Part shown: piece after piece, positions 9,604 through 21,266 of the stretch
How positions within the stretch are numbered: the stretch's first letter is position 1
Layout of the letters: the number at the start of each line of letters is the position of its first letter
Notes under the pieces: model-generated
Seen by the model: only the letters and a program-made list of their open reading frames with translations
What the model was told of the DNA's origin: nothing
The model's database searches: none
Position numbers and translations under genes: made by a program
Origin: Candidatus Micrarchaeota archaeon
Lineage (GTDB): Archaea; Micrarchaeota; Micrarchaeia; Micrarchaeales; CABMGC01
NCBI GenBank assembly: GCA_021848095.1
Contig: JAJZMZ010000024.1
Location: 1 to 43,660, forward strand
Length of the DNA: 43,660 nt
Direction of reading: 5' to 3'

Positions 9604-10569
9604 ATGGCCGAGATAGATCTTTCATGGACAGAGAAGTATAGACCTTCTAAATTAACAGAAGTAATAGGTCAGGATGCGATAGTTGAAAAATTAAAGGCTT
9701 TTGTTAAAATTAAAAGTTTTCCTAGTATGATCTTTGCAGGACCTGCAGGAGTCGGAAAAACTACATCTGCAATAGCAATGGCAAAGGAGTTATATGGGAC
9801 ATCAATAAACGAAGCGTTTCTTGAGCTAAACGCAAGCGACTCGAGAGGTATTGAGGTAGTAAGAGGAAAGGTAAAAGAGTTTGCAAGAACAATTCCTTTA
9901 TCGAGTGGTTTAGTTAAGATAGTATTTCTTGATGAAGCCGATGCTCTCACGCCAGAAGCACAACATGCACTTAGGAGAACTATGGAAAAGTACTCAGCTA
10001 CAACTAGATTTATATTAGGAGCTAACTACTCAAGTAAAATAATAGACCCTATACAAAGTAGGTGTGTTGTTCTTAGATTTAAGCCATTGAAAGAAGAAGA
10101 GATGAAAGCTTATATAAAAAGAGTTGCAGCTTCAGAATCGTTGGATATTGATGAAAAAGCAGTTGAAGCATTACTTTATGTATGTGAAGGAGATTTAAGA
10201 AGATTAACCAATATACTTCAAAGTGCAGCAGTAACTGAAAAAAAGATAACAGAAGCTTCTATTTATGAAATTGCAGCTAGAGCTCGTCCGAAAGAAGTAA
10301 TTGCAATGCTTAGATGTGCAATTTCAGGAGATTTTGAAAAGGCAAGAACAGAGTTAAATACATTAACATTAGTACATGGTATGAGTGGTGAAGATGTACT
10401 AGTACAATGCTATAGAGAAGCTGTTTCTATGGATTTAGATGATAAAAAGAAGCTTCGTTTAATCTCACAGATAGGAGATTGCAATTACAGAATAGTAGAA
10501 GGTGCAAATGATAGAATACAGCTAGAAGCTATGCTAGCAAAGCTTGCTTTATTAGGAGAAAAAGCTTAA
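9604..10569 (+). CDS. rfcS: Replication factor C small subunit
   Basis: WTEKYRP, GPAGVGKT, LELNASDSRG, DEAD, SRC motif; no intein. Confidence 0.97.
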   Translation: MAEIDLSWTEKYRPSKLTEVIGQDAIVEKLKAFVKIKSFPSMIFAGPAGVGKTTSAIAMAKELYGTSINEAFLELNASDSRGIEVVRGKVKEFARTIPLSSGLVKIVFLDEADALTPEAQHALRRTMEKYSATTRFILGANYSSKIIDPIQSRCVVLRFKPLKEEEMKAYIKRVAASESLDIDEKAVEALLYVCEGDLRRLTNILQSAAVTEKKITEASIYEIAARARPKEVIAMLRCAISGDFEKARTELNTLTLVHGMSGEDVLVQCYREAVSMDLDDKKKLRLISQIGDCNYRIVEGANDRIQLEAMLAKLALLGEKA

Positions 10570-10943: not shown

Positions 10944-12011
10944 TTGATAAGTGAAGCGTTTAATGGCTCAGTTAAATATCTTCAAATAATGAATGAAGAG
11001 GGAGAAATAGATCAGACAGTTATGCCACAGGACATAAGTGATTCTCAGATTTTAGAGATGTATAAAGGAATGATGCTTGCAAGAGCTGTCGATGCTAAAG
11101 TCCTTAGTCTTCAAAGACAAGGACGTGCAGTAACATATGCACCTTTACTAGGTGAGGAAGCGACACAGATAGGAACAGCAATGGCTATGAGAAAACAAGA
11201 TATCTTTGTTCCAGCTTTTAGACAACATGGAGTATTTATAGAAAGAGGAGTTCCAATGGACTCATTATTCTTATACTGGAGAGGTTTTGAGGAAGGAAAT
11301 GTTTTTCCAAAAGAGCTCAATGCATTTCCAATAATAGTTCCCGTTGCAACGCAGATGCCACATGCTACAGGAATTGCTTTTGCACAACGATATCTTAAAA
11401 AAGACTCGGCCGTTTTAGTTTATGTCGGAGATGGAGGAACTTCAGAAGGAGATTTTTATGAAGCAATTAACTTCGCAGGCGTTTGGAAAGTACCACTAAT
11501 AACAATAATAGAGAATAATCAATGGGCAATTTCACTACCTAGAAATGAACAAACAATGGCAAAAACATTAGCTCAAAAAGCTATAGCAGTAGGTATCGAT
11601 TCTATTCAAGTAGATGGAAATGATGTTTTAGCTGTTTATAAAGCAACTAAAGATGCAATAACAAACTCAAGTAAAGGCCCAATGATAATAGAGTGTGTAA
11701 CATACAGAATGGGTTTACACACTACATCTGATGACCCTACAAAGTACAGAACAGATATTGAGGTAGAAACATGGAAAAAGAAAGATCCTATTGAACGTGT
11801 TAAAAAGTATTTAGTTAAAAAAGGATTATGGAATGATGCAAGAGAACAACAAGAAACTGAAGCAATTTCTAAATTAGTTGATGAATCTGTAGAAAAAGCT
11901 GAAAGATTTAAACCAGATCCTAGAAGTATGTTTAGTACAGTTTACAGCTTTATGCCACAAACACTTCGTGAAGAGTTTGATGAAGCTGAGGCGAATAACT
12001 TTTGGCAGTAG
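10944..12011 (+). CDS. pdhA: 2-oxoacid (pyruvate/branched-chain) dehydrogenase E1 alpha subunit
   Basis: TPP motif GDGGTSEGDFYE...ENNQWAIS; YRMGLHTTSDDP loop; LQRQGR. Confidence 0.95.
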   Translation: MISEAFNGSVKYLQIMNEEGEIDQTVMPQDISDSQILEMYKGMMLARAVDAKVLSLQRQGRAVTYAPLLGEEATQIGTAMAMRKQDIFVPAFRQHGVFIERGVPMDSLFLYWRGFEEGNVFPKELNAFPIIVPVATQMPHATGIAFAQRYLKKDSAVLVYVGDGGTSEGDFYEAINFAGVWKVPLITIIENNQWAISLPRNEQTMAKTLAQKAIAVGIDSIQVDGNDVLAVYKATKDAITNSSKGPMIIECVTYRMGLHTTSDDPTKYRTDIEVETWKKKDPIERVKKYLVKKGLWNDAREQQETEAISKLVDESVEKAERFKPDPRSMFSTVYSFMPQTLREEFDEAEANNFWQ

Positions 12012-12019
12012 GTGTTTTT

Positions 12020-12985
12020 ATGCAAATGAATATGGTTTCTGCACTTAACAATGCATTAGATATAATATTGAAAGAAAATGACAAAGCGTTAATTTTAGGA
12101 GAAGACGTAGGAAAAGACGGTGGTGTTTTCAGAGTTACTGAAGGTTTATTAGAAAAGTATGGTGAAAATAGAGTAGTTGATACACCATTAGCTGAATCAG
12201 GAATTATTGGAACATCTATAGGGATGGCACTTTCAGGTTTACACCCTATATCAGAGATTCAGTTCGCAGGTTTTATGTTCTTAGGTTTTTCACAATTAAT
12301 AAATCACGCTTCTAGATATAGAACTAGAACACGATCTAATATGAGTTTACCAATGGTTGTAAGAACACCTGTAAGTGGAGGTGTCAGAACACTAGAACAT
12401 CACTCAGATAGTCCAGAAACGTACTACTCGCACATTGGTGGTTTAATAGTTGTGGAACCATCTACACCTTATGATGCAAAAGGTTTGCTTATAAAAGCGT
12501 CTAGAATGAATGATCCAGTTGTATTTTTAGAGCCAACAAAACTTTACCGTTTATTTAGAGAAGAAGTTCCTGAAGAACCATATGAAGTTACAATAGGAAA
12601 AGCAAAGGTAGTGAGAGAGGGCAGTAAATTAAGTATAGTTACATATGGAACTATGGTTCCGGTAGTTAAAAGTGTTGTTGAAAAGAAAAAGCTAGATGCT
12701 GAGATAATTGATTTGAGAACTATAAATCCAATAGATGAAAAAACTATTTTAGAAAGTGTTAGTAAAACAGGAAGAGTTGCCATTGTTCACGAAGCATCAT
12801 TAAGTTTTGGCGTAGGAGCGGAGATAGCAGCAAGAATTTCTGAAAAAGCGCTTTATAAATTAAATGCGCCTATTGTAAGAGTAGGTGGAAATAGTTTCCC
12901 ATATCCATATCCAGGATATGAAAACTTCTATGTTCCAAATGAAAAGAAGATATCTTATGCATTGGATAAACTGTTAAAGGGTTGA
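12020..12985 (+). CDS. pdhB: 2-oxoacid dehydrogenase E1 beta subunit
   Basis: GEDVGKDGGVFRVT, DTPLAESGI, EIQF, HHSDS. ATG at 12020 follows a GGTG RBS. Confidence 0.95.
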   Translation: MQMNMVSALNNALDIILKENDKALILGEDVGKDGGVFRVTEGLLEKYGENRVVDTPLAESGIIGTSIGMALSGLHPISEIQFAGFMFLGFSQLINHASRYRTRTRSNMSLPMVVRTPVSGGVRTLEHHSDSPETYYSHIGGLIVVEPSTPYDAKGLLIKASRMNDPVVFLEPTKLYRLFREEVPEEPYEVTIGKAKVVREGSKLSIVTYGTMVPVVKSVVEKKKLDAEIIDLRTINPIDEKTILESVSKTGRVAIVHEASLSFGVGAEIAARISEKALYKLNAPIVRVGGNSFPYPYPGYENFYVPNEKKISYALDKLLKG

Positions 12986-12988
12986 GTT

Positions 12989-14353
12989 ATGAAAGAGTTA
13001 AAATTTGTTGATGTTGGAGAAGGAATAACAGAGGGAAATATTAAAAAATGGTTGTTCAAAGACGGAGATTCGGTAAAAGAAGATACAACTATAGTACAGA
13101 TAGAAACTGACAAAGCAGTAGTAAATATACCTGCACCAGTATCTGGTAAGTTAAAGATAGTTGCAAAAGAAAATACAACACTTAAGACAGGAGATACAAT
13201 AGCATTTGTAGGAGATGATGTTTCTACAACAACACCTCAACAAACAACACAAGGACCATCAAGTAGTGTTATCAGTAAGGCAATACACGAACAAGAAAGT
13301 ATCAAGGAGTTTGGTTTTGCGCCGGATTCTGATGCTGCAATTAATGCTCCTTCAACTAGCACAGCACAGCCACAAAAAACTACGACACAACCGCAAACAA
13401 ACATAAATCAACAACAAACAAATACAATTCAACCACAAATGAATACAACAAAGCAACAACAAAAAACAGAGGTCATTGCAACACCAGGCGTAAGAAAACT
13501 TGCAAGAGACTTGAATATTGATATAAATACAGTAAAAGGAACAGGTCCTAATGGAAAGATACTTGAAAATGATGTTAGATCCGCTTCAATAAGTACAAAT
13601 AAGAAAACATCAATCCCTAAGTTTTCAGAAACATTAGAAAAGTCACACACAGAAGATATTGAAAGAGTTCCATTAACACAAACAAGAAAAGCAATAGCAA
13701 AGAATATGGAGTTATCATGGTCAATACCAAGAGCAGTGCATATGGATCACATAGATGTAACAAATCTTTACGATTTAGTAAAAAGGGAAAAGGAGAACAT
13801 GGCTAAAAGAAATGTAAAGCTTACTTTCTTACCATTTATAATTAAGGCAACAATAGAAGCAATTAAAGAGAATCCACGATTTAACTCTAGTTATGATCAT
13901 GAAAAACTTGAGATAATATTAAAAAAATATTACAATATAGGATTAGCAGCACAAGGTCCTGATGGATTAAAGGTTGTAGTTATAAAAAATTCTGAGAAGA
14001 AGAATATTTCAGATATTGCAAAAGAGATACAAATGTTGTCAGAGAAAGTTAAAAAAGCAGAGGTTTCATTAGAGGATATGTCAGACTCAACATTTACTAT
14101 AACCAATATAGGAAGTTTAGGAGGAGGAGATTTTTCAGTCCCAATGATAAATTATCCTGAAGTTGCAATATTAGGAATACATCTAATAAGAGATACACCT
14201 GTAGTCAAAGATGGTGAGATTCAAATAAGAAAAATACTTCCATTTTCACTTACATTTGATCACAGAGTAGTTGATGGAGCTGATGCAGTAGCTTTTGGTA
14301 ATGCACTGAAAAGATATCTAGAGGATCCTGATTTTCTAGAGTTAATTGCTTAG
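12989..14353 (+). CDS. pdhC: Dihydrolipoamide acyltransferase E2
   Basis: Single lipoyl domain (ETDKAVV), E3-binding domain (ATPGVRKLAR..GTGPNG), catalytic DHRVVDGA. Confidence 0.96.
   Translation: MKELKFVDVGEGITEGNIKKWLFKDGDSVKEDTTIVQIETDKAVVNIPAPVSGKLKIVAKENTTLKTGDTIAFVGDDVSTTTPQQTTQGPSSSVISKAIHEQESIKEFGFAPDSDAAINAPSTSTAQPQKTTTQPQTNINQQQTNTIQPQMNTTKQQQKTEVIATPGVRKLARDLNIDINTVKGTGPNGKILENDVRSASISTNKKTSIPKFSETLEKSHTEDIERVPLTQTRKAIAKNMELSWSIPRAVHMDHIDVTNLYDLVKREKENMAKRNVKLTFLPFIIKATIEAIKENPRFNSSYDHEKLEIILKKYYNIGLAAQGPDGLKVVVIKNSEKKNISDIAKEIQMLSEKVKKAEVSLEDMSDSTFTITNIGSLGGGDFSVPMINYPEVAILGIHLIRDTPVVKDGEIQIRKILPFSLTFDHRVVDGADAVAFGNALKRYLEDPDFLELIA
13367..13471 (+). repeat. Imperfect 21-bp (7-aa) tandem repeat x5 in the E2 linker
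   Basis: QPQKTTT / QPQTNIN / QQQTNTI / QPQMNTT / KQQQKTE. Confidence 0.6.
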
Positions 14354-14361
14354 TTGATTTT

Positions 14362-15741
14362 ATGGTAATGGGCTCTATACCTGAAAAAGTAAATCTTGCA
14401 ATAGTAGGTGGTGGTGTAGGAGGTTATGTCGCGGCTATACGCGCCGCTGAGCTAGGTCTTTCAGTAATTATAATAGAAAAGGACAAGATGGGTGGCCATT
14501 GCTTAAACTATGCGTGTATACCGTCTAAAACACTATTGCACATTGCTGATATATACCACAAAGCAAAGAACTCACAAAACTTCGGAATAGAAGCTGAGCC
14601 AAAAATAAATGCACAAAAAATATTAGAGTGGAGAATGGGCGTTTCTGAAAAGCTAGAAAAAGGTGTAGAATTTTTATGTAACTCTAATGGAATAGAGATA
14701 GTAAAAGGCGGAGCAACATTCATATCCTCTCAAAAGTTACAGATAACTAATGGAACTGAGATTGATTTTGATACCGCAATAATAGCAACCGGTTCTGTCC
14801 CAGTAGAGTTAAAGGGCTTTGAGTTTAATGACTACATACTTGACTATAAAAAAGCATTAATGCTTTCAACAATACCTAAAACATTAACAATAATAGGAGC
14901 AGGATATGTTGCAGTAGAGTTAGCTACACTTTATGCTAAGCTTGGTGTTTCTGTTTCTATACTTGCACGATCAACTATTCTATCACATTTTGATCCTGAA
15001 GCTGTTTCAATAATAGAAAAAAGCCTTGAAAAGTTAAATGTTAAAATTTACAAAAACTCAGTTCCTGAGTCACATACACAAACCTCAATTAAATTGAAGT
15101 CAGGAGAAGAAATACCGCACGAGTTAGTTGTTGTAGCAGTAGGATTAAAACCATACACTGATAATTTAGGTTTAGAAAATACTAAAGTAGTTGTAGATCA
15201 AAAAGGTTTCATAACTGTCGGACAATCGTTAAACACAGCAGATGAAAAGATATTAGCAATTGGAGATGTTATAGGGGAACCGATGCTTGCACATAAATCA
15301 ATGAGACAAGGGGTCATCGCGGCAGAGGTAGCTGCTGGAAAAAATGCCGGTTTCGACAATGTCGTAATACCAGCAGTTGTATTTTCAGACCCAGAAATTG
15401 GAATAGCAGGAGATGTTTCTGAAAAAACAGGAATTTACATTAAAAAGTTCCCATTAACTGCACTTGGAAGAGCAATAGCAATGAACAAAACAGATGGCTT
15501 TGTTAAGATTGCATATGATAAAAATAAAGTAGTGAAAGGTATTGAAATTGTATCGTCTGATGCAAATGCAATGGTTGCTGAAGCTGCGTTAGCCATAGAG
15601 ATGGGTGCAACATTAGAAGACATTGCAGATACAATACATCCTCATCCAACATATACTGAACAAATACAGGAAGTAGCAGAAGCAGGTTTAGGAAGACCAA
15701 TACATTTCTTTTATGGAAAAAATAATGAAAATGGTAAATAA
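14362..15741 (+). CDS. lpdA: Dihydrolipoamide dehydrogenase E3 (NADP-type fingerprint)
   Basis: FAD GGGVGG, redox disulfide GGHCLNYACIPSK, C-terminal HPHPTYTE; position in the E1/E2 operon. Confidence 0.95.
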   Translation: MVMGSIPEKVNLAIVGGGVGGYVAAIRAAELGLSVIIIEKDKMGGHCLNYACIPSKTLLHIADIYHKAKNSQNFGIEAEPKINAQKILEWRMGVSEKLEKGVEFLCNSNGIEIVKGGATFISSQKLQITNGTEIDFDTAIIATGSVPVELKGFEFNDYILDYKKALMLSTIPKTLTIIGAGYVAVELATLYAKLGVSVSILARSTILSHFDPEAVSIIEKSLEKLNVKIYKNSVPESHTQTSIKLKSGEEIPHELVVVAVGLKPYTDNLGLENTKVVVDQKGFITVGQSLNTADEKILAIGDVIGEPMLAHKSMRQGVIAAEVAAGKNAGFDNVVIPAVVFSDPEIGIAGDVSEKTGIYIKKFPLTALGRAIAMNKTDGFVKIAYDKNKVVKGIEIVSSDANAMVAEAALAIEMGATLEDIADTIHPHPTYTEQIQEVAEAGLGRPIHFFYGKNNENGK

Positions 15742-15743
15742 GT

Positions 15744-16511
15744 ATGAACGTATCTCTTTTCACTAAAAAAAAGTATCCAGAAATAGAAAGAAAGATAAGA
15801 AGTAACTTTGAGGTAGTAAAAAACGGAGAGATTTGCATAGCAATAGGAGGAGATGGTACATTTATTCATGCAGCACAAAAAACTTCCTGTCCCATACTTT
15901 TAATACGGGATAATACTGATGATAGTACAGGCTATTACTCAGATTTAGGAGTAGATAGAATTGATGAAGTAATACATTTATTAAAAAATAAAAATTATCA
16001 TGTTGAATTATTAGGTAAAAAACTTCTCTTAACGTATAAAAATAAAAAATATTATGCAATTAACGAGTGTTACTTATCAAACAGTGTTGGGGAAGTAAGC
16101 TTCAAAGTTTATGAGATCATAAACAACAAGCGTCAACATATATACCCATTTGTTGTAGGAGGAGATGGAGTTATAATAAGTAGTAAAATAGGTTCTACAG
16201 CTTATAATAGAAGTGCAGGAGGGCCTATACTTCTTGAGAATAATCTTTTTTGTATTACATTTATTAATCCCGATGGACCTTATAGAAACGCGCTTGTAGT
16301 AAACTCAAATAAAACAATTGAGATAGAGATTTCAAAGTATGAAGGAGTTCTAAGGTATGATAACTTTACTGTTGGTACTATTAGAAAAGGGGATTCTTTT
16401 AGAGTGAAATCCTCTGAAAAAGAAATTAAAATAATTAAGTTAAATGGAATTTACGAAACGTTCGGGGATAAATTAAAAAGAGTAATAAAAAGCAAGATGC
16501 AAAACGCATAG
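15744..16511 (+). CDS. nadK: NAD kinase
   Basis: GGDGT, NE motif (AINE), DGVIISS..GSTAYNRSAGGP. Confidence 0.9.
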   Translation: MNVSLFTKKKYPEIERKIRSNFEVVKNGEICIAIGGDGTFIHAAQKTSCPILLIRDNTDDSTGYYSDLGVDRIDEVIHLLKNKNYHVELLGKKLLLTYKNKKYYAINECYLSNSVGEVSFKVYEIINNKRQHIYPFVVGGDGVIISSKIGSTAYNRSAGGPILLENNLFCITFINPDGPYRNALVVNSNKTIEIEISKYEGVLRYDNFTVGTIRKGDSFRVKSSEKEIKIIKLNGIYETFGDKLKRVIKSKMQNA

Positions 16512-16549: not shown

Positions 16550-17182
16550 TTAAGTTGTTTGAGAACTTATTATATTCACTAGTGCAGGAATTGTGTAATT
16601 TGTAACTGAAGATGCGCTATAATTTCCAGTTGATAAAATAACTGCAAAGTAATTTTTATAATATCCTAAAATAAGAAATGATTTTACATTTCCATTATAA
16701 ATACGATAAAGTTCAGAATAATTTACGCCATTGTATGTTTTATTGTAAATTGGAGAGTATTGATGTGTTATTAACTCGTGATTTAAAGTGCTGTGATAAT
16801 TATTTGAAGCAGATGTATTAAGAATTGATATTAACTCTAATACCGAGTTAGACCCATAATATGCTACCTTCACTCCGCTTGTTATGTTTCTATTTGAGAT
16901 GTTTAAGTTATATAATTGGTTAATAAGTGTAATATTTCTAATTGTACTACTCCTCGTTAAGTTAAAATAATGATATGAACCTGAACCAACAGCAGAGCTA
17001 AGCTTGACATTTATTGGAACATTATTTATACCGTTTGAACTTTGATGTTGTACATTGTAATTAGTGCTAATCACATATGCAATTATTGAAAAAATAACTA
17101 TAACTAAAATTACAGCAATTGCAACATTCTTTTTAGAGTGTTTTGCTTTTGAATCAATATTGTTTATATTTGAGTTATACAT
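16550..17182 (-). CDS. Membrane-anchored Asn/Ser/Tyr-rich surface protein
   Basis: ATG at 17182 with GTGA RBS; basic residues then one TM (NVAIAVILVIVIFSIIAYVI); many N-x-S/T sequons. Confidence 0.7.
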   Translation of the reverse strand: MYNSNINNIDSKAKHSKKNVAIAVILVIVIFSIIAYVISTNYNVQHQSSNGINNVPINVKLSSAVGSGSYHYFNLTRSSTIRNITLINQLYNLNISNRNITSGVKVAYYGSNSVLELISILNTSASNNYHSTLNHELITHQYSPIYNKTYNGVNYSELYRIYNGNVKSFLILGYYKNYFAVILSTGNYSASSVTNYTIPALVNIISSQTT

Positions 17183-17186
17183 AATA

Positions 17187-20100
17187 TCACGGTAAAGGTT
17201 GCGCATTTGTAGATATTGCAATTCTTTGATAAGTCATATCGCCTAATCCGTTTGAACCATAGCCAAATTCAGTTCCGATAGGCAATGTGAATGTGCCCGT
17301 ATTAGCAAAGGAAACATTAAACTCGCCACTAGGTCCATTTTCAAATGTAGAGTTATAAGTAATTAGATCATAAATACTGTATACTGAACCTCCATTAGTA
17401 ACACTAGCAATACCAGAATATAAGTACTTACCATCCGGAGATACTATCATTTCTCCAGGTCCGCCAGTAAAACAACCACCACCATTGGCACCTGAATCAT
17501 AGTTTATTTTAACTATTTTTTGAAGTTGTGTATTTATCGTTGCAATTGCGCAATTAGAAAATGGAGTTGAATAACCTACAAAAACAAATGTTCCGTTAGT
17601 TGTAGATGTCATAGCATCTCTTTTGTTGTTGTAAATGGTATCATAGAAATTAAAATGAGGAAGTGATATCGTACTGAAAGCATTTGTATTCTTATTGTAT
17701 ATTGCAACTTCTCCGTTTTCTGGACTTAACATGTAAACATATGGTGTATTATTAACTGGAACTACAGGAGGATTTGTTAAAATTGAGTTAGTTGATTGAG
17801 ATAATAATCCCGAATCAGTTACTGTCCAATAACTATAAGTTATAAACTCATTTGGACTAGGTGGCGAAGAACAACTAAAAGCTCCGGCATCTCCAGTGCC
17901 CGCGGCGGTTTGAGTATCACTATTCCCATTTGCATTGTATGTTGAAGCTATAGTATCATTTAATGGATAATTGAAAACTATTTGAGCTGCCGTTGCGCCC
18001 ATACCTCCAGGAGCAGGACCAGGAGCATCACTATAATCATCTTGAAGTTGAGTTTGATAAGATAATACAGTCATATCGTTATTTTTTTCAAGCATTCCAT
18101 TTATATAAACAGTAGAAGTTGATGCAAAACCATAATTTGCTTCAGCAGCACAAACAGAACCAGAAGATGAGGACATAGATGAAAAAGCATCTATTGTTTG
18201 ATAAGGGGTTAGATATAAGTTTCCTGCAGCGCAAGGACCTCCTGAAGGGCAGTTTGCAGCTTGAGAATTACTAGTTGTTGCAGCCATACCAGATAAAATA
18301 ACATTTGTTGGAAACACTTGGGATAAAGTTTGAGCATAAAACTCGTAATTTACACTTCCTGAAGGGTATATTGAGAAGAAATTTCCATTTGGTTGTGAAA
18401 AATCAGCCACCATTGGTAAATAATACGTACTTGTTTCAGGAGTCATTGGATAACCAGAGTTATAAAAGTATGAAATTTGCGCTTCTGGCGCTACAATATT
18501 TGAGTTAACAATATTTTGTGTAGTATTAGCAGTAGTCAATAACGCTTGTCCATCATTTATAGTATTGCCAGTGTAGTTATAACCTCCAATTCTTAAGTTA
18601 TTTCCATCATAAAGTAATGCAGTAGGAGAAAATGTAGATGGTAATGTAACATTTTCTTTGTTTATTAAGTATGCACTGCTTATAATACTAACCTGTCCAA
18701 AGTTTGTAGAACCTGGATTATAATAATTTCCTGATTTCTGAGCGCCTGTTGTGTATATATTGTAGTTATTTTGTGGTGCGTATACAATGTCTGCATTTCC
18801 ATAAGTTTTAGGAGTATTTAAGTTATTTTCTAGGCCCAGAACACCATCTTGAGAACCTGATTTAAGATTATAAATTTCATAAAAGTTTCCAGAACCTACC
18901 GTTGTGCTTACATATAAATCAGTACTATTTGCACTTGAAACAAAGTTATATTGTGAGCCCGTAGCTAATGGAATAGAATCGGGATAATTAACGTAGGGAT
19001 CAGTGGATCTGAAGTTCTGAACACTCTTTACACTGGAAACGCCACTTCCACTTACTGGAAATGTGTATACGGTTTCGTTTGATAGTACAACATAAAGATC
19101 AGTAAGATTACTACTTAATGTTGCACCAACAGTATAGTTACTTAAAGATAATGCTACGTTTGTGTAGTTTATCTTTAACGATGTTGTGTTAAATGATGCT
19201 ATTGACGAGTTGTATTCAGATGAAGATGTTCCATTGACCATTGCAAAGTACATAAAGTTTCCATCTGTTACCATATTTATTATTCCAGAAGCAGAACCTA
19301 TTGAAGGTCCGAATTTGTTTATTAATATATTTGCTGCCATTGAGTTATTTTTGGTGGTATTTAATACATATAAATTAGTTGAGTTTGAAATAAAAGCATA
19401 ATTACCTAACATTATGAAACTTGTGAAGTAAGGATTATATGCTGCATCTGAAGCCGATGATCCGATAATATTAGTTAAGTTTTTAACTTGTATTTTATTG
19501 TAAGTGTAGAATAAATTAGAGGATGTCATAGCATCTTGCAAATCAGTTTTATTGATTATTACTAAATATGGGCCTTCTGGTGTATTAAAAGCTGATGATG
19601 TCCCTCCTATTAAGATGTAAAGTGAACCTGATGAGTTAAACTGCATTGAATAGCCATCTCCAGAAGCTACTCCTTGAATTATAGTCGTATTTGCAGTTGA
19701 GTTTGCTATTAAAGCTTCCTTAACTACTGATTCAGTAGATGTATTTATTATTACTAGAGCAGCTGTGAAACTGCTATTTCCATCATTATAAAACTTAGAT
19801 AAGTCATAAACATAACCGTCTCTAGAAACTGTAATGTAATTGTGATTAGATTCATAGTATGAGCTACCTATACTGTTCAACACATTGTTGTGGTACATAT
19901 CGCTTACTAGCCCTATCGTTTGTCCACCGTTATTATTGCTGTAGAAATAAGTATCCTTTGATGGATAGGTATAAGCTGGAACTGGATAATAGAAACCTGT
20001 TTGTTTATTGAAGTTTGCCGTTTCCACCGTATTGTCACTCATAGTTAAGGTGTTTGTTGATGCTGTTCCTGCATAACATCCTATACCAGTACAAGTCCAA

Positions 20101-21266
20101 TCATTAAATTCATAACCAGAAGCAGGAGTTTCAGATATTATTACTGTGTTTCCAGCTTGATATGAACCACTTGGTGGAGAGGCAGTTCCCCCATTTGTTG
20201 GATTAACATTAGTTGTTAAGGTGTAAGTTGCAATTGATTGTTGGAAGTTTGCTGTTTCTACAATATCTGAGTTCATTGTTATTGTTGCTGATTTTGTAGT
20301 TCCAGAGTAACAACCCGTTCCTGTACAAGACCAACCCGTAAATATATAACCTGATGCAGGAGTTTCTGAGATTGTAACTTGTGTTCCAGAGTAATAACTT
20401 CCTGAAGCAGGAGTCACCGTTCCTCCATTTGATGGAACTGAGTTTGTTGTTAAAGTATAAGTTGCTAATTGGTTGAAGCTTGCCGTTTCTACTATATTAG
20501 CATCCATAATTATTGTCGGATTAGTAGATGTTCCTGAGTAACAACCCGTTCCAGTACAAGTCCAATCGTTAAATGAATAACCCGTACTTGGAGTTTCTGA
20601 GATTGATACTGATTTCCCACTGTTATAACTTCCTGAAGTTGGAGATGTCGTACCTCCATTTGTTGGAGAAGGATATGTATTTAATGTATAAGTAGGCAAC
20701 GTTGTTGTTGTACTTAATAAAGAATTATATTGATAAATATATGTCAAACCGCTTCCTGAAGTTGTTAATGAAACTTCTTGTTTACTATTACTATTACAAT
20801 TTTGAGAGATACATTCAGAGTATGTTAAGTAAAACTGTGGACTTATCTCAGAACCTATTGGAAGTGTAAGACCAGTTACTGAGATAGTACATGTAATACG
20901 TTCACCTTGAAGAGCTGTAGAAGGTTGACAACTACCTTGATAATACTGTGAGTTAGGAGTAAACTTAATTGAAAATGAAGAAGAGGAAAAATATAAGGGT
21001 TTATTGACATTATTTGAAAACTCAATTAATGCAGATGTTCCAATTGAGTTAGAGTTTATCAAAAGTTGATAACATGGAAACTCTGGAGAGATATAACAGT
21101 ATGACGATGCATATGTTGTTTGATTGCTCGAGTAGTAAAAGTAAATGACGAGTACTGCAATTAATATTATTATTGCCCATGAGTAACTAAGAACATATTC
21201 TATTGCGGATTGCTGTTTTGAAGTTTTTTTTGTAGTGCCGTGTAGTATTTTTTTAGAAGATGCCAT
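17187..21266 (-). CDS. Giant (1359 aa) surface protein: class III (pilin-like) leader, 3 InlB-B/Flg_new-like repeats, probable beta-propeller
   Basis: N-terminus KQQSAIEYVLSYSWAIIILIAVL; repeats TYTL...GGT..P.SGSY..G..V.ISETP..GY.F..W.CTG.GCY.GT; C-terminal VSRDG / VSPDGKYLY YncE-like blades. Confidence 0.8.
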   Translation of the reverse strand: MASSKKILHGTTKKTSKQQSAIEYVLSYSWAIIILIAVLVIYFYYSSNQTTYASSYCYISPEFPCYQLLINSNSIGTSALIEFSNNVNKPLYFSSSSFSIKFTPNSQYYQGSCQPSTALQGERITCTISVTGLTLPIGSEISPQFYLTYSECISQNCNSNSKQEVSLTTSGSGLTYIYQYNSLLSTTTTLPTYTLNTYPSPTNGGTTSPTSGSYNSGKSVSISETPSTGYSFNDWTCTGTGCYSGTSTNPTIIMDANIVETASFNQLATYTLTTNSVPSNGGTVTPASGSYYSGTQVTISETPASGYIFTGWSCTGTGCYSGTTKSATITMNSDIVETANFQQSIATYTLTTNVNPTNGGTASPPSGSYQAGNTVIISETPASGYEFNDWTCTGIGCYAGTASTNTLTMSDNTVETANFNKQTGFYYPVPAYTYPSKDTYFYSNNNGGQTIGLVSDMYHNNVLNSIGSSYYESNHNYITVSRDGYVYDLSKFYNDGNSSFTAALVIINTSTESVVKEALIANSTANTTIIQGVASGDGYSMQFNSSGSLYILIGGTSSAFNTPEGPYLVIINKTDLQDAMTSSNLFYTYNKIQVKNLTNIIGSSASDAAYNPYFTSFIMLGNYAFISNSTNLYVLNTTKNNSMAANILINKFGPSIGSASGIINMVTDGNFMYFAMVNGTSSSEYNSSIASFNTTSLKINYTNVALSLSNYTVGATLSSNLTDLYVVLSNETVYTFPVSGSGVSSVKSVQNFRSTDPYVNYPDSIPLATGSQYNFVSSANSTDLYVSTTVGSGNFYEIYNLKSGSQDGVLGLENNLNTPKTYGNADIVYAPQNNYNIYTTGAQKSGNYYNPGSTNFGQVSIISSAYLINKENVTLPSTFSPTALLYDGNNLRIGGYNYTGNTINDGQALLTTANTTQNIVNSNIVAPEAQISYFYNSGYPMTPETSTYYLPMVADFSQPNGNFFSIYPSGSVNYEFYAQTLSQVFPTNVILSGMAATTSNSQAANCPSGGPCAAGNLYLTPYQTIDAFSSMSSSSGSVCAAEANYGFASTSTVYINGMLEKNNDMTVLSYQTQLQDDYSDAPGPAPGGMGATAAQIVFNYPLNDTIASTYNANGNSDTQTAAGTGDAGAFSCSSPPSPNEFITYSYWTVTDSGLLSQSTNSILTNPPVVPVNNTPYVYMLSPENGEVAIYNKNTNAFSTISLPHFNFYDTIYNNKRDAMTSTTNGTFVFVGYSTPFSNCAIATINTQLQKIVKINYDSGANGGGCFTGGPGEMIVSPDGKYLYSGIASVTNGGSVYSIYDLITYNSTFENGPSGEFNVSFANTGTFTLPIGTEFGYGSNGLGDMTYQRIAISTNAQPLP
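20010..20693 (-). repeat. Three intragenic tandem repeats, period 231-234 bp
   Basis: Units start at 20693, 20462 and 20228; the similarity is visible at DNA level (e.g. gagtaacaacccgttcc, acaagtccaatc, ggagtttc). Confidence 0.9.

Follow-up and report, generated by a model that had tools for sequence, protein, structure and literature searches.

Which coenzyme does the dihydrolipoyl dehydrogenase (E3) of a micrarchaeal 2-oxoacid dehydrogenase complex reduce? Textbooks present the 2-oxoacid dehydrogenase complexes as sources of NADH. NAD+ is the sole coenzyme named in the review abstracts consulted on these complexes. The E3 gene considered here lies in a stretch of 43,660 nucleotides (the window) from a Candidatus Micrarchaeota archaeon, and the first-pass annotation of this DNA had proposed that its product carries a coenzyme fingerprint of the NADPH type.

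The E3 gene and its operon

The features of the window that bear on this question are the following.

10944..12011, + strand: E1 alpha, ThDP-dependent 2-oxoacid decarboxylase (Pfam E1_dh, 4.1e-87; TIGR03181 PDH_E1_alph_x, 444.8 bits, cut-off 411)
12002..12985, + strand: E1 beta (Pfam Transket_pyr and Transketolase_C; NF006667, 267 bits, below cut-off), overlapping E1 alpha by 10 nt
12989..14353, + strand: E2 acyltransferase with one lipoyl domain (Pfam Biotin_lipoyl 3-72, E3_binding (PSBD) 162-197, 2-oxoacid_dh 223-450)
14362..15741, + strand: E3, dihydrolipoyl dehydrogenase, 459 aa (over the TIGR01350 cut-off)
14407..14424, + strand: FAD-binding GxGxxG, G16-G21 of E3 (G16, G18 and G21 invariant in both alignments)
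14500..14517, + strand: redox-active disulfide C47-LNYA-C52 of E3 (both Cys invariant in an alignment that includes E. coli Lpd and Gor)
14896..14994, + strand: NAD(P)-binding fingerprint of E3, comprising GAGYVAVELA, a helix, beta-2 and A202-R203-S204-T-I-L-S208-H209-F-D (from the sequence, alignments and model)
15643..15660, + strand: catalytic dyad His428...Glu433 (HPTYTE) in the C-terminal interface domain of E3 (H428 and E433 invariant in both alignments)
15744..16511, + strand: NAD kinase, 255 aa (Pfam NAD_kinase_C, 2.1e-11; GGDGT motif), 2 nt past the E3 stop

In an NCBIfam profile search the product of 14362..15741 passes the TIGR01350 model by a narrow margin (418.8 bits, cut-off 408.8), and it is the sole match over this cut-off in the host genome, which is ~0.8 Mb in size and 91% complete. 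Its best relatives among solved structures are 1EBD (6e-101) and 2EQ6 (2e-100). Conservation was assessed in its 120 nearest homologs (Micrarchaeota/"Marsarchaeota", 63-100% identity), referred to below as the clade. The motif CLNYACIPSK (C47..K56) is found in 118 of the 120 members, and the motif H.HPT..E, which is HPHPTYTE (H426..E433) in this protein, is found in all of them. The protein is otherwise typical of its family, the exception being the NAD+ fingerprint (GxGxxG and a Glu ending beta-2), which it lacks.

The genes for E1 alpha, E1 beta, E2 and E3 follow one another at spacings of -10, 3 and 8 nt, and the E2 is the only one in the genome (a single PF00198 match). Upstream of clade E3 genes, E2 is present at 14 of 16 loci and E1 beta at 12 of 16; several of the lacking loci end at a contig edge. 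The earlier description of the protein as E3-like outside the fingerprint, based on CLNYACIPSK, HPHPT and its operon position, is borne out by the motifs, the TIGR01350 match and the E1a-E1b-E2-E3 gene order.

The second-best NCBIfam model is that of mercuric reductase (MerA, TIGR02053, 295 bits), and the fingerprint is 47% identical to that of Tn21 MerA. The protein might on these grounds work outside the complex, as an NADPH-dependent reductase of disulfides or metals that resembles MerA, glutathione reductase or a lipoamide reductase and lies in the operon by chance. This seems most improbable: the MerA score falls far under its cut-off of 454 bits while TIGR01350 is passed, and the scores against the glutathione reductase models are also well short of their cut-offs (NF004776, 239 bits against 480; TIGR01421, 211 against 556). 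On inspection the sequence lacks cysteine at its C-terminus, and with it the Cys pair of MerA, as well as any N-terminal extension that could hold a metal-binding domain. The His-Glu dyad that characterises E3 and glutathione reductase is in place, the best 30 matches among solved structures are all E3s, and the E2 carries an E3-binding domain in a 91%-complete genome with no other E3. By these features of its sequence, the product of 14362..15741 is a genuine E3 serving the single E1a/E1b/E2 complex of the genome. A role for this E3 in a glycine cleavage system as well finds no support; GcvH was not found in the genome, where the sole weak match (18.6 bits) is the E2's own lipoyl domain.

The coenzyme fingerprint

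The motif reads exactly as it had been annotated, G179-A-G181-Y-V-A184-V-E186-L-A188 (GxGxxAxExA) followed by S199-I-L-A202-R203-S-T-I-L-S208-H209-F-D211, with residue 179 starting at 14896 and residue 211 ending at 14994. An AlphaFold2 model of the E3 (mean pLDDT 91.0) has strands at residues 174-178 and 197-201 and a helix at 182-193. This places A202 and R203 at the C-terminal end of beta-2 in the second beta-alpha-beta fold, the canonical position for discriminating between a 2'-OH and a 2'-phosphate.

E205, M206, F207, D208 and P212 of E. coli Lpd align with A202, R203, a gap, S204 and S208 of the micrarchaeal E3, and with V197, R198, K199, H200 and R204 of E. coli glutathione reductase (Gor). 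The glycines of Lpd GGGIIGLEMG that correspond to A184 and A188 are Ala in Gor too, A184 being equivalent to Gor A179. The loop after beta-2 is one residue shorter than in Lpd and Gor and has the length found in MerA.

The residue equivalences on which the first-pass annotation relied hold in alignments with E. coli Lpd, Gor and the Tn21 and Tn501 MerA proteins. Its Gor and MerA examples were also apt, as Gor has GAGYIAVELA and VRK and both MerA proteins carry LAR(S/N)T, aligned with the micrarchaeal E3 without gaps. An acidic residue at the ribose position, which would have spoken against the proposal, is absent from the aligned protein. With A184, A202 and R203, the sequence would be classed as having an NADPH-type fingerprint (GxGxxA, and at the end of beta-2 an Arg preceded by a residue that is not acidic). 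The annotation had further pointed out that the second 2'-phosphate-binding Arg of glutathione reductase is replaced. This is correct in that Gor R204 aligns with Ser208, although in the same sequence alignment the adjacent His209 is basic, and the replacement has to be qualified for the clade, in which 208 or 209 is always basic, the charge being mostly shifted by one position.

Conservation of the fingerprint

Position 202 is Ala and position 204 is Ser in 120/120 clade members. Position 203 is Arg in 106 and His in the other 14, and position 184 is Ala in 91 and Ser in 29, with Gly in none. Residues 208 and 209 are SH in 57 sequences, SR in 42, SK in 17, RT in three and RV in one; every member thus keeps a second positive charge, most of them one position further on. 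Position 205, three residues past the strand end, is Asp in 107 of the 120 and Thr in the protein of the window.

A wider sample consisted of 147 full-length representatives at 50% identity, 3 of 150 having been left out as shorter than 400 aa. A Glu or Asp is present at the strand end in 135 of these 147 more distant sequences. GxGxxG accompanies the acid in 134 of the 135, and only four of them have a basic residue at 208/209. The set fixed across the clade and the pairing of acid with GxGxxG among the representatives therefore indicate that the features of the fingerprint co-vary. Judged from these sequences, the conservation of the fingerprint exceeds chance and the Ala-Arg motif is not a one-off.

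Phylogeny and origin of the fingerprint

Nesting of the protein within the E3/LpdA family had been proposed as a check, and this is what the larger trees show. In a 167-row FastTree phylogeny rooted on Gor and MerA, the Ala-Arg clade (support 100) nests inside the E3s that have the Glu. The same nesting is recovered by IQ-TREE from 120 rows with residues 174-215 removed. In a 54-row tree that keeps the fingerprint columns, the non-acid sequences are basal, beside the outgroups. On a single origin of all non-acid variants the trees differ, as these form one group of 22 rows (support 93) in the 167-row tree and are scattered on weakly supported branches in the 120-row tree. The polarity of the change from acid to non-acid thus depends on the sampling and on the columns used.

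When the fingerprint segment (residues 176-213) is left aside, the NAD(P) domain shares 28-37% identity with those of six Glu-type E3s from near-relative genomes, 27% with that of E. coli Lpd and 19-21% with those of MerA and Gor. For the 38 residues of the segment itself, identity is 42% to Gor and 21% to E. coli Lpd, compared with the 47% to Tn21 MerA given above and 34-42% to the six near-relative E3s. A PDB search with the NAD(P) domain alone places E3s (47.0 and 46.7 bits) narrowly above MerA (44.1 bits). As the clade nests among Glu-type E3s and the likeness to MerA and Gor is confined to the fingerprint, the sequences point to local convergence with MerA and Gor as its origin. A domain swap from a MerA- or glutathione reductase-like gene was considered and ruled out, the NAD(P) domain being E3-like outside residues 176-213.

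Coenzyme preference

The positions altered in the micrarchaeal E3 are those exchanged in published specificity swaps of Lpd and Gor. As tabulated in PMC5817062, the swap in Lpd is E205V/M206R/F207K/D208H/P212R (Bocanegra 1993) and that in Gor is A179G/A183G/V197E/R198M/K199F/H200D/R204P (Scrutton 1990). In the kinetic data of PMC8406311, wild-type E. coli Lpd has no activity with NADP+ and a kcat/KM of 830 s-1 mM-1 with NAD+. The E205A exchange alone gives 6.5 with NADP+ and 5.4 with NAD+, which abolishes the preference for NAD+ and opens the use of NADP+. The same source describes the five-fold Lpd mutant as preferring NADP+ about 100-fold; its E205A and E205G enzymes arose by laboratory evolution.

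What the data show directly is the features of the sequence and where they lie in the fold, their conservation throughout the clade, the identity of the protein as an E3 and its setting in the operon. From its motifs and, by analogy, from mutants of an enzyme that is 36% identical, we infer which coenzyme it prefers and what part it plays in the physiology of the cell. In the proposed mechanism, the Glu that hydrogen-bonds the 2'/3'-OH of the adenosine ribose and repels a 2'-phosphate has been exchanged for Ala202. Arg203 and Ser204 would form the site for the 2'-phosphate jointly with a further basic side chain, which is His209 in this protein and Arg, Lys or His at 208/209 in the clade at large. 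The third Gly of GxGxxG has given way to the Ala that glutathione reductase and MerA also have, and the loop is shortened by one residue, to its length in MerA. Such a remodelled pocket suggests that the E3 has changed from an NAD+ to an NADP+ type, and we consider it reasonably likely that NADP+ is preferred over NAD+ and that the complex yields NADPH. The E3 would then reoxidise the dihydrolipoyl arm on E2 by reducing NADP+ ahead of NAD+, and the complex would probably make NADPH instead of NADH.

Several features of the pocket sit less easily with a preference for NADP+. Ser occupies the Gor R204 site, and His209 would be a weaker, pH-dependent ligand. The same weakness applies to the His that replaces Arg203 in the 14 members noted above. 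The single Lpd E205A and E205G mutants are only dual-specific (ratio 0.6-1.9) and slow, according to the kinetics reported in PMC8406311.

An E3 of dual specificity would use NAD+ and NADP+ about equally, or NAD+ with a modest preference, and would feed both pools. Ser208 in place of the second Arg of glutathione reductase is consistent with this, as are the weaker phosphate ligands at 203 (His in 14/120) and 209 (His in 57/120). We regard dual specificity as a serious but rather unlikely alternative. The clade has not only lost the Glu, it has also fixed Arg/His203, the Ser, GxGxxA/S and the second basic residue in 120/120 members, and this is most of the Lpd set to which the passages cited from PMC8406311 and PMC5817062 ascribe an NADP+ preference of about 100-fold.

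For a minority of Rossmann enzymes, the coenzyme assigned from motifs is wrong. The E3 might accordingly still be NAD+-dependent in effect, the change being compensated elsewhere (by Asp/Thr205 or backbone contacts) and without physiological meaning. The common Asp205 could in principle reach the ribose, which speaks for NAD+; the protein of the window itself has Thr at this position, and in 5X1Y, the solved structure of a mercuric reductase, Arg-Ser-Glu occurs with the spacing of R203-S204-Asp205 of the clade. Mercuric reductases of the 5X1Y kind use NADPH. That 120 sequences of 63-100% identity all keep Arg or His at 203 and a basic side chain at 208/209 is hard to explain unless these residues serve as phosphate ligands. 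Loss of the Glu also cuts the NAD+ kcat/KM of E. coli Lpd about 150-fold, from 830 to 5.4, in the data of PMC8406311. Continued dependence on NAD+ is in our judgement very unlikely.

The NAD kinase and the supply of NADPH

The gene that follows the E3 encodes the only NAD kinase of the genome (a single PF20143 match), which scores up to 1.2e-25 against NCBIfam NAD kinase models, all under their cut-offs. A preference for NADP+ would be served by this arrangement, as the adjoining sole kinase may supply NADP+ to the E3 in the subclade to which the window belongs. A kinase gene also directly follows the E3 gene at three other loci (L009, L011 and L012) and lies 1.6 kb away at a fourth (L015), all in this subclade. 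Of the clade loci, 14 extend 1 kb or more beyond the E3 gene; adjacency is immediate in three of these, at 1.6 kb in one and absent in ten, and it was seen at 0 of 64 non-clade loci, as scored by tblastn with the kinase of the window (E<=1e-5), a search that very divergent kinases may escape. The pairing of the two genes is probably a single evolutionary event. As a signature of the whole clade it is unsupported, being confined to the subclade.

The 91%-complete genome has no match to G6PD_C or PNTB. It encodes one protein of the isocitrate dehydrogenase family (Iso_dh) and has two malic-enzyme matches, and the E3 therefore need not be the source of NADPH. The proposal that it is the only possible source was set aside in view of these candidate NADPH producers. 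These matches and the absence of an adjacent kinase at most clade loci are to be set against the preference for NADP+.

A literature search found no natural NADP-type E3. The NADP+-using Lpd enzymes on record in PMC5817062 and PMC8406311, in the tables and text cited here, are engineered or evolved variants of the E. coli enzyme. We tentatively raise the possibility, for which the sequences leave somewhat less than an even chance, that the Micrarchaeota and related (Q/H/Y)-R lineages, including a Candidatus Methanoperedens genome, hold the first natural NADP+-specific 2-oxoacid (pyruvate or branched-chain) dehydrogenase complex. In the subclade of the window it would be co-transcribed with the sole NAD kinase; it might be a main generator of NADPH in cells without glucose-6-phosphate dehydrogenase and transhydrogenase, and it would be a natural counterpart of the E. 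coli Lpd switch. If this is true, models of flux and redox balance in the Micrarchaeota and other DPANN archaea would change, with acetyl-CoA formation contributing biosynthetic and antioxidant reducing power. The enzyme would also offer a natural, presumably optimised template for an NADPH-generating pyruvate dehydrogenase in metabolic engineering, and a clean natural experiment on coenzyme switching in a flavoprotein family with two dinucleotide-binding domains.

Comparison with known systems

The switched variants of E. coli Lpd belong to the same family and are altered at the same positions. At the sites of E205 and M206 the micrarchaeal E3 carries Ala and Arg. The acid of D208 has given way to Ser, and the Pro of P212 to a Ser that is followed by His. 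Unlike the listed mutants, it is natural, ancient and fixed in its clade, and it has in addition GxGxxA, the second Ala (xxxA) and a deletion of one residue in the loop.

The NAD+-dependent E3s from the PDH complexes of the bacteria Geobacillus stearothermophilus (1EBD) and Thermus thermophilus (2EQ6) resemble it in the order of their domains, in having the redox disulfide and the His-Glu dyad, and in partnering an E2 that contains a PSBD. They differ in the fingerprint, where they have GxGxxG and a Glu closing beta-2 (ILEG.., LIEY..) and the micrarchaeal protein has GxGxxA and Ala-Arg.

NADPH-dependent MerA (Tn21; Tn501, 1ZK7) has a beta-2 loop that aligns without gaps, the LAR residues and a GxxxxA-type motif, and ILARST is identical in Tn21. 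Overall identity outside the fingerprint is ~29%, and the micrarchaeal E3 has the His-Glu dyad and neither the NmerA domain nor the C-terminal Cys pair. In NADPH-dependent E. coli Gor, GAGY(I/V)AVELA is nearly identical, V197-R198 takes the place of A202-R203, and an FD motif follows the loop in both proteins. Gor has K199, H200 and R204 where the micrarchaeal E3 has the deletion, Ser204 and Ser208-His209, and overall identity is 28%.

The 2-oxoacid dehydrogenase complexes of the Thermoplasmata and Haloarchaea have been assayed with NAD+. Their operons are of the same type, with E1 beta and E2 upstream of E3, and their E3s are 38-42% identical to the protein described here. GxGxxG and the Glu are kept at all sampled haloarchaeal and Thermoplasmata loci (for example VVEMLDD.., VVEFLAQ..), and the characterisation of these complexes is therefore uninformative on the Ala-Arg clade.

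The nucleotide-binding loop of the E3

Window positions 14896-14994 encode residues 179-211 of the 459-residue dihydrolipoyl dehydrogenase (E3, the query). They read GAGYVAVELA and then, further on, SILARSTILSHFD, letter for letter as in the first-pass annotation. An AlphaFold2 model built on a 25-sequence alignment (mean pLDDT 91.0, pTM 0.87) has strands at 174-178 and 197-201 and a helix at 182-193, so that the Ala202-Arg203 pair immediately follows beta-2 of the second beta-alpha-beta unit. In Rossmann folds the position just after beta-2 holds the ribose-binding acid in NAD enzymes and Arg in NADP enzymes. E. coli K-12 lpd and gor and a Tn21-type merA were fetched and aligned with the query.

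Aligned residues of E. coli lipoamide dehydrogenase (Lpd), the query and E. coli glutathione reductase (Gor)
Lpd E205; query A202; Gor V197
Lpd M206; query R203; Gor R198
Lpd F207; query gap; Gor K199
Lpd D208; query S204; Gor H200
Lpd P212; query S208 (then H209); Gor R204

The adenosine-ribose position, at which an acid would have spoken against the first-pass annotation, is thus occupied by A202. Its caveat that the second 2'-phosphate-binding Arg of Gor is replaced also holds. As in Gor (GAGYIAVELA), two Gly of the Lpd motif GGGIIGLEMG are Ala in the query, A184 and A188. The mercuric reductases (MerA) of Tn21 (ILARSTLFFRED) and Tn501 (1ZK7) align with the query loop ungapped, its length is therefore MerA-like.

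Conservation among homologues

The nearest homologues, which share Ala202-Arg/His203 and are here called the clade, were sampled as the best 120 matches in a 90%-clustered database (63-100% identity to the query). Their sources, where named, are Micrarchaeota, Micrarchaeia, Micrarchaeaceae or Marsarchaeota, and the names on close homologues put the host of the query in Micrarchaeota. One pattern fits all 120 at positions 184-209.

Residues in the clade sample (n=120)
184: Ala 91, Ser 29
188: Ala 38, Gly 82
202: Ala 120
203: Arg 106, His 14
204: Ser 120
205: Asp 107, Gly 6, Thr 4, Glu 2, Arg 1
208-209: SH 57, SR 42, SK 17, RT 3, RV 1

All 120 thus have a basic residue at 208 or 209, with its position swapped in four sequences. 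The motif CLNYACIPSK is present in 118 of the 120 and H.HPT..E in all of them. The second Gly of GxGxxA is replaced in ten members (Ser 9, Ala 1; GASYVA and GAAYVA, in homologues P0017, P0041 and relatives), which is unusual for a dinucleotide-binding loop.

In an exhaustive 50%-identity library the whole clade is one representative (P0121, 64% identity) and the next match has 49%. We compared 147 of the 150 representatives listed, each at least 400 amino acids long, three fragments being dropped. Glu or Asp ends the strand in 135 of these 147 (Glu-type); GxGxxG occurs in 134 of the 135 and a basic residue at 208/209 in four. The strand-end acid is absent from the remaining 12, with Arg next in seven. 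Across these alignments the acid, GxGxxG and the 208/209 charge co-vary, as a coenzyme switch would predict.

Origin of the fingerprint

Tree 1 (FastTree, 167 rows) contained the query, 16 picked of the 120 clade members, the 147 representatives, and E. coli Lpd, Gor and MerA. With Gor and MerA as the root, it has a monophyletic clade (support 100) many nodes inside Glu-type E3s. The sister of the clade is another Ala-Arg sequence, P0137 (support 98), and a group of variants with (Y/Q/H)-Arg encloses the clade (support 93). Tree 2 (IQ-TREE 'quick', 120 rows) was built with query residues 174-215 taken out; the 16-row clade (support 100) is again deep within Glu-type E3s, and the remaining non-acid variants are spread over weak branches. 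Tree 3 (54 rows, mostly near relatives, fingerprint columns kept) has the non-acid rows basal, beside the outgroups. The nesting within E3s expected in the first-pass annotation is thus found in trees 1 and 2 but not in tree 3. In our reading, thin sampling and the shared fingerprint drew these rows towards the outgroups; the basal placement nevertheless means that the polarity of acid loss is not proven. Glu-type E3s occur in Micrarchaeota too (P0122, P0123).

Identity of the query by region of the NAD(P) domain
Outside the fingerprint: six Glu-type E3s from genomes of near relatives 28-37%; E. coli Lpd 27%; MerA 21%; Gor 19%
Fingerprint (176-213): the same six 34-42%; E. coli Lpd 21%; MerA 47%; Gor 42%

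The domain is E3-like outside the fingerprint and MerA/Gor-like only within it. These identities speak against a swapped NAD(P) domain and for local convergence.

Gene cluster and genome

The E3 gene lies in a tight, co-directional cluster of five genes with successive junctions of -10, 3, 8 and 2 nt; the first ORF beyond it is on the opposite strand.

10944-12011 (+), E1 alpha: Pfam E1_dh; TIGR03181 444.8 bits, cut-off 411
12002-12985 (+), E1 beta: Pfam Transket_pyr/Transketolase_C
12989-14353 (+), E2: Pfam lipoyl, E3-binding and catalytic domains
14362-15741 (+), E3, pyridine nucleotide-disulphide oxidoreductase: TIGR01350 418.8, above the cut-off of 408.8
15744-16511 (+), NAD kinase: Pfam NAD_kinase_C 2.1e-11; GGDGT motif; all NCBIfam NAD kinase models below cut-off

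In E2 a long low-complexity linker rich in Thr, Gln, Pro and Asn (residues ~78-160, window 13220-13470) runs from the lipoyl to the E3-binding domain. Upstream, a 321-residue ORF (9604-10569, +) with Walker A (GPAGVGKTT) and DEAD box-like motifs resembles the small subunit of replication factor C, which fits an archaeal origin. Downstream, a 1359-residue ORF (17187-21266, -) is probably a surface protein. It has a hydrophobic N-terminal segment, three tandem ~90-residue repeats (SGSY..G..V.ISETP..GY.F..W.C.G.GCY.G) and then a long Asn/Ser/Thr-rich region. A 223-residue ORF with a hydrophobic segment (16550-17221, -) lies just downstream and shares 35 nt with the 3' end of the larger ORF.

The assembly (41 contigs, 810,845 bases, 91% complete) contains one E3 over the TIGR01350 cut-off, one E2, one NAD kinase, one Iso_dh protein and two malic-enzyme matches. 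Profile searches of this 91% complete genome found no GcvH, G6PD_C or PNTB. Its runner-up TIGR01350 match (72.8 bits, 316-residue frame; G000:C31:10785-11402, -, in the same assembly) is a short pyridine nucleotide-disulphide oxidoreductase, which may be an NADPH consumer resembling thioredoxin reductase.

The NAD kinase, which starts 2 nt past the E3 stop, is divergent (best NCBIfam score 90.5 bits, cut-off 260). Among 16 clade loci in species-representative genomes (L009-L024), it directly follows E3 in three related MAG loci (L009, L011, L012), and L015 has it 1.6 kb downstream. One subclade (support 93, tree without residues 174-215) unites these four loci with the query and L021. Fourteen clade loci have 1 kb or more of sequence beyond E3; in 10 of them no NAD kinase follows, and none is near E3 in the 64 loci outside the clade. 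The linkage is limited to one subclade.

Other non-acid variants occur at six more loci (L025, L031, L032, L040, L044, L045), in most cases with E1b and E2 nearby. All haloarchaeal, Thermoplasmata and Bacillales loci sampled are Glu-type. In L031 (4001-5407, a Candidatus Methanoperedens nitroreducens MAG) and in L025, L032, L044 and L045 (Micrarchaeota MAGs) the beta-2 Glu is missing and the full loop length is kept. The order there is Gln or His, next Arg or His, and then Ser or Gly, and basic residues come later, as in IIQRSPRILTR and IVHRGDLLLKR. With E1b and E2 upstream of them, these may be additional NADP-type or dual E3s.

Coenzyme preference and comparison with known systems

As far as sequence can go, the NADPH-type reading of the first-pass annotation is supported. 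The protein is a bona fide E3 with a dinucleotide pocket converted to NADP type; it probably prefers NADP+, and the complex would then make NADPH. Several observations count against NADP+: Ser at the Gor R204 position, though a basic neighbour is always there, His for Arg at 203 in 14 of the 120, Asp205 in most relatives, and NAD kinase linkage in one subclade only. The solved mercuric reductase 5X1Y has an Arg-Ser-Glu arrangement; reductases of its family can therefore accommodate an acid at the spacing of 205. The main rival is a dual-specific E3, at about one chance in four; retention of NAD+ specificity and a role other than that of an E3 are both unlikely.

Full-text searches, which covered few subscription journals, turned up no 2-oxoacid dehydrogenase complex with a natural E3 described as NADP-type. 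NADP(H)-reactive lipoamide dehydrogenases were reportedly described around 1989-1990 from the glycine decarboxylase systems of glycine-fermenting clostridia and Eubacterium acidaminophilum, and the Thermoplasma and Haloferax complexes are said to have been assayed with NAD+. The NADP-type fingerprint is fixed across a whole archaeal lineage.

Engineered switches are known in this family. As tabulated in PMC5817062, the NAD-to-NADP set of E. coli Lpd is E205V, M206R, F207K, D208H and P212R (Bocanegra 1993), and the reverse set of E. coli Gor is A179G, A183G, V197E, R198M, K199F, H200D and R204P (Scrutton 1990). According to PMC8406311, wild-type Lpd has a kcat/KM of 830 s-1 mM-1 with NAD+ and no activity with NADP+. 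The values for NAD+ and NADP+ are 5.4 and 6.5 s-1 mM-1 in E205A and 12.8 and 7.8 s-1 mM-1 in E205G, both single changes gave in vivo NADPH supply by the PDH and OGDH complexes, and the five-fold mutant is reported to have a ~100-fold NADP+ preference. Compared with the Lpd switch sites, the query has the Ala and the Arg, with neither an acid at the D208 site nor Pro at the P212 site, and it additionally carries both Gly-to-Ala changes.
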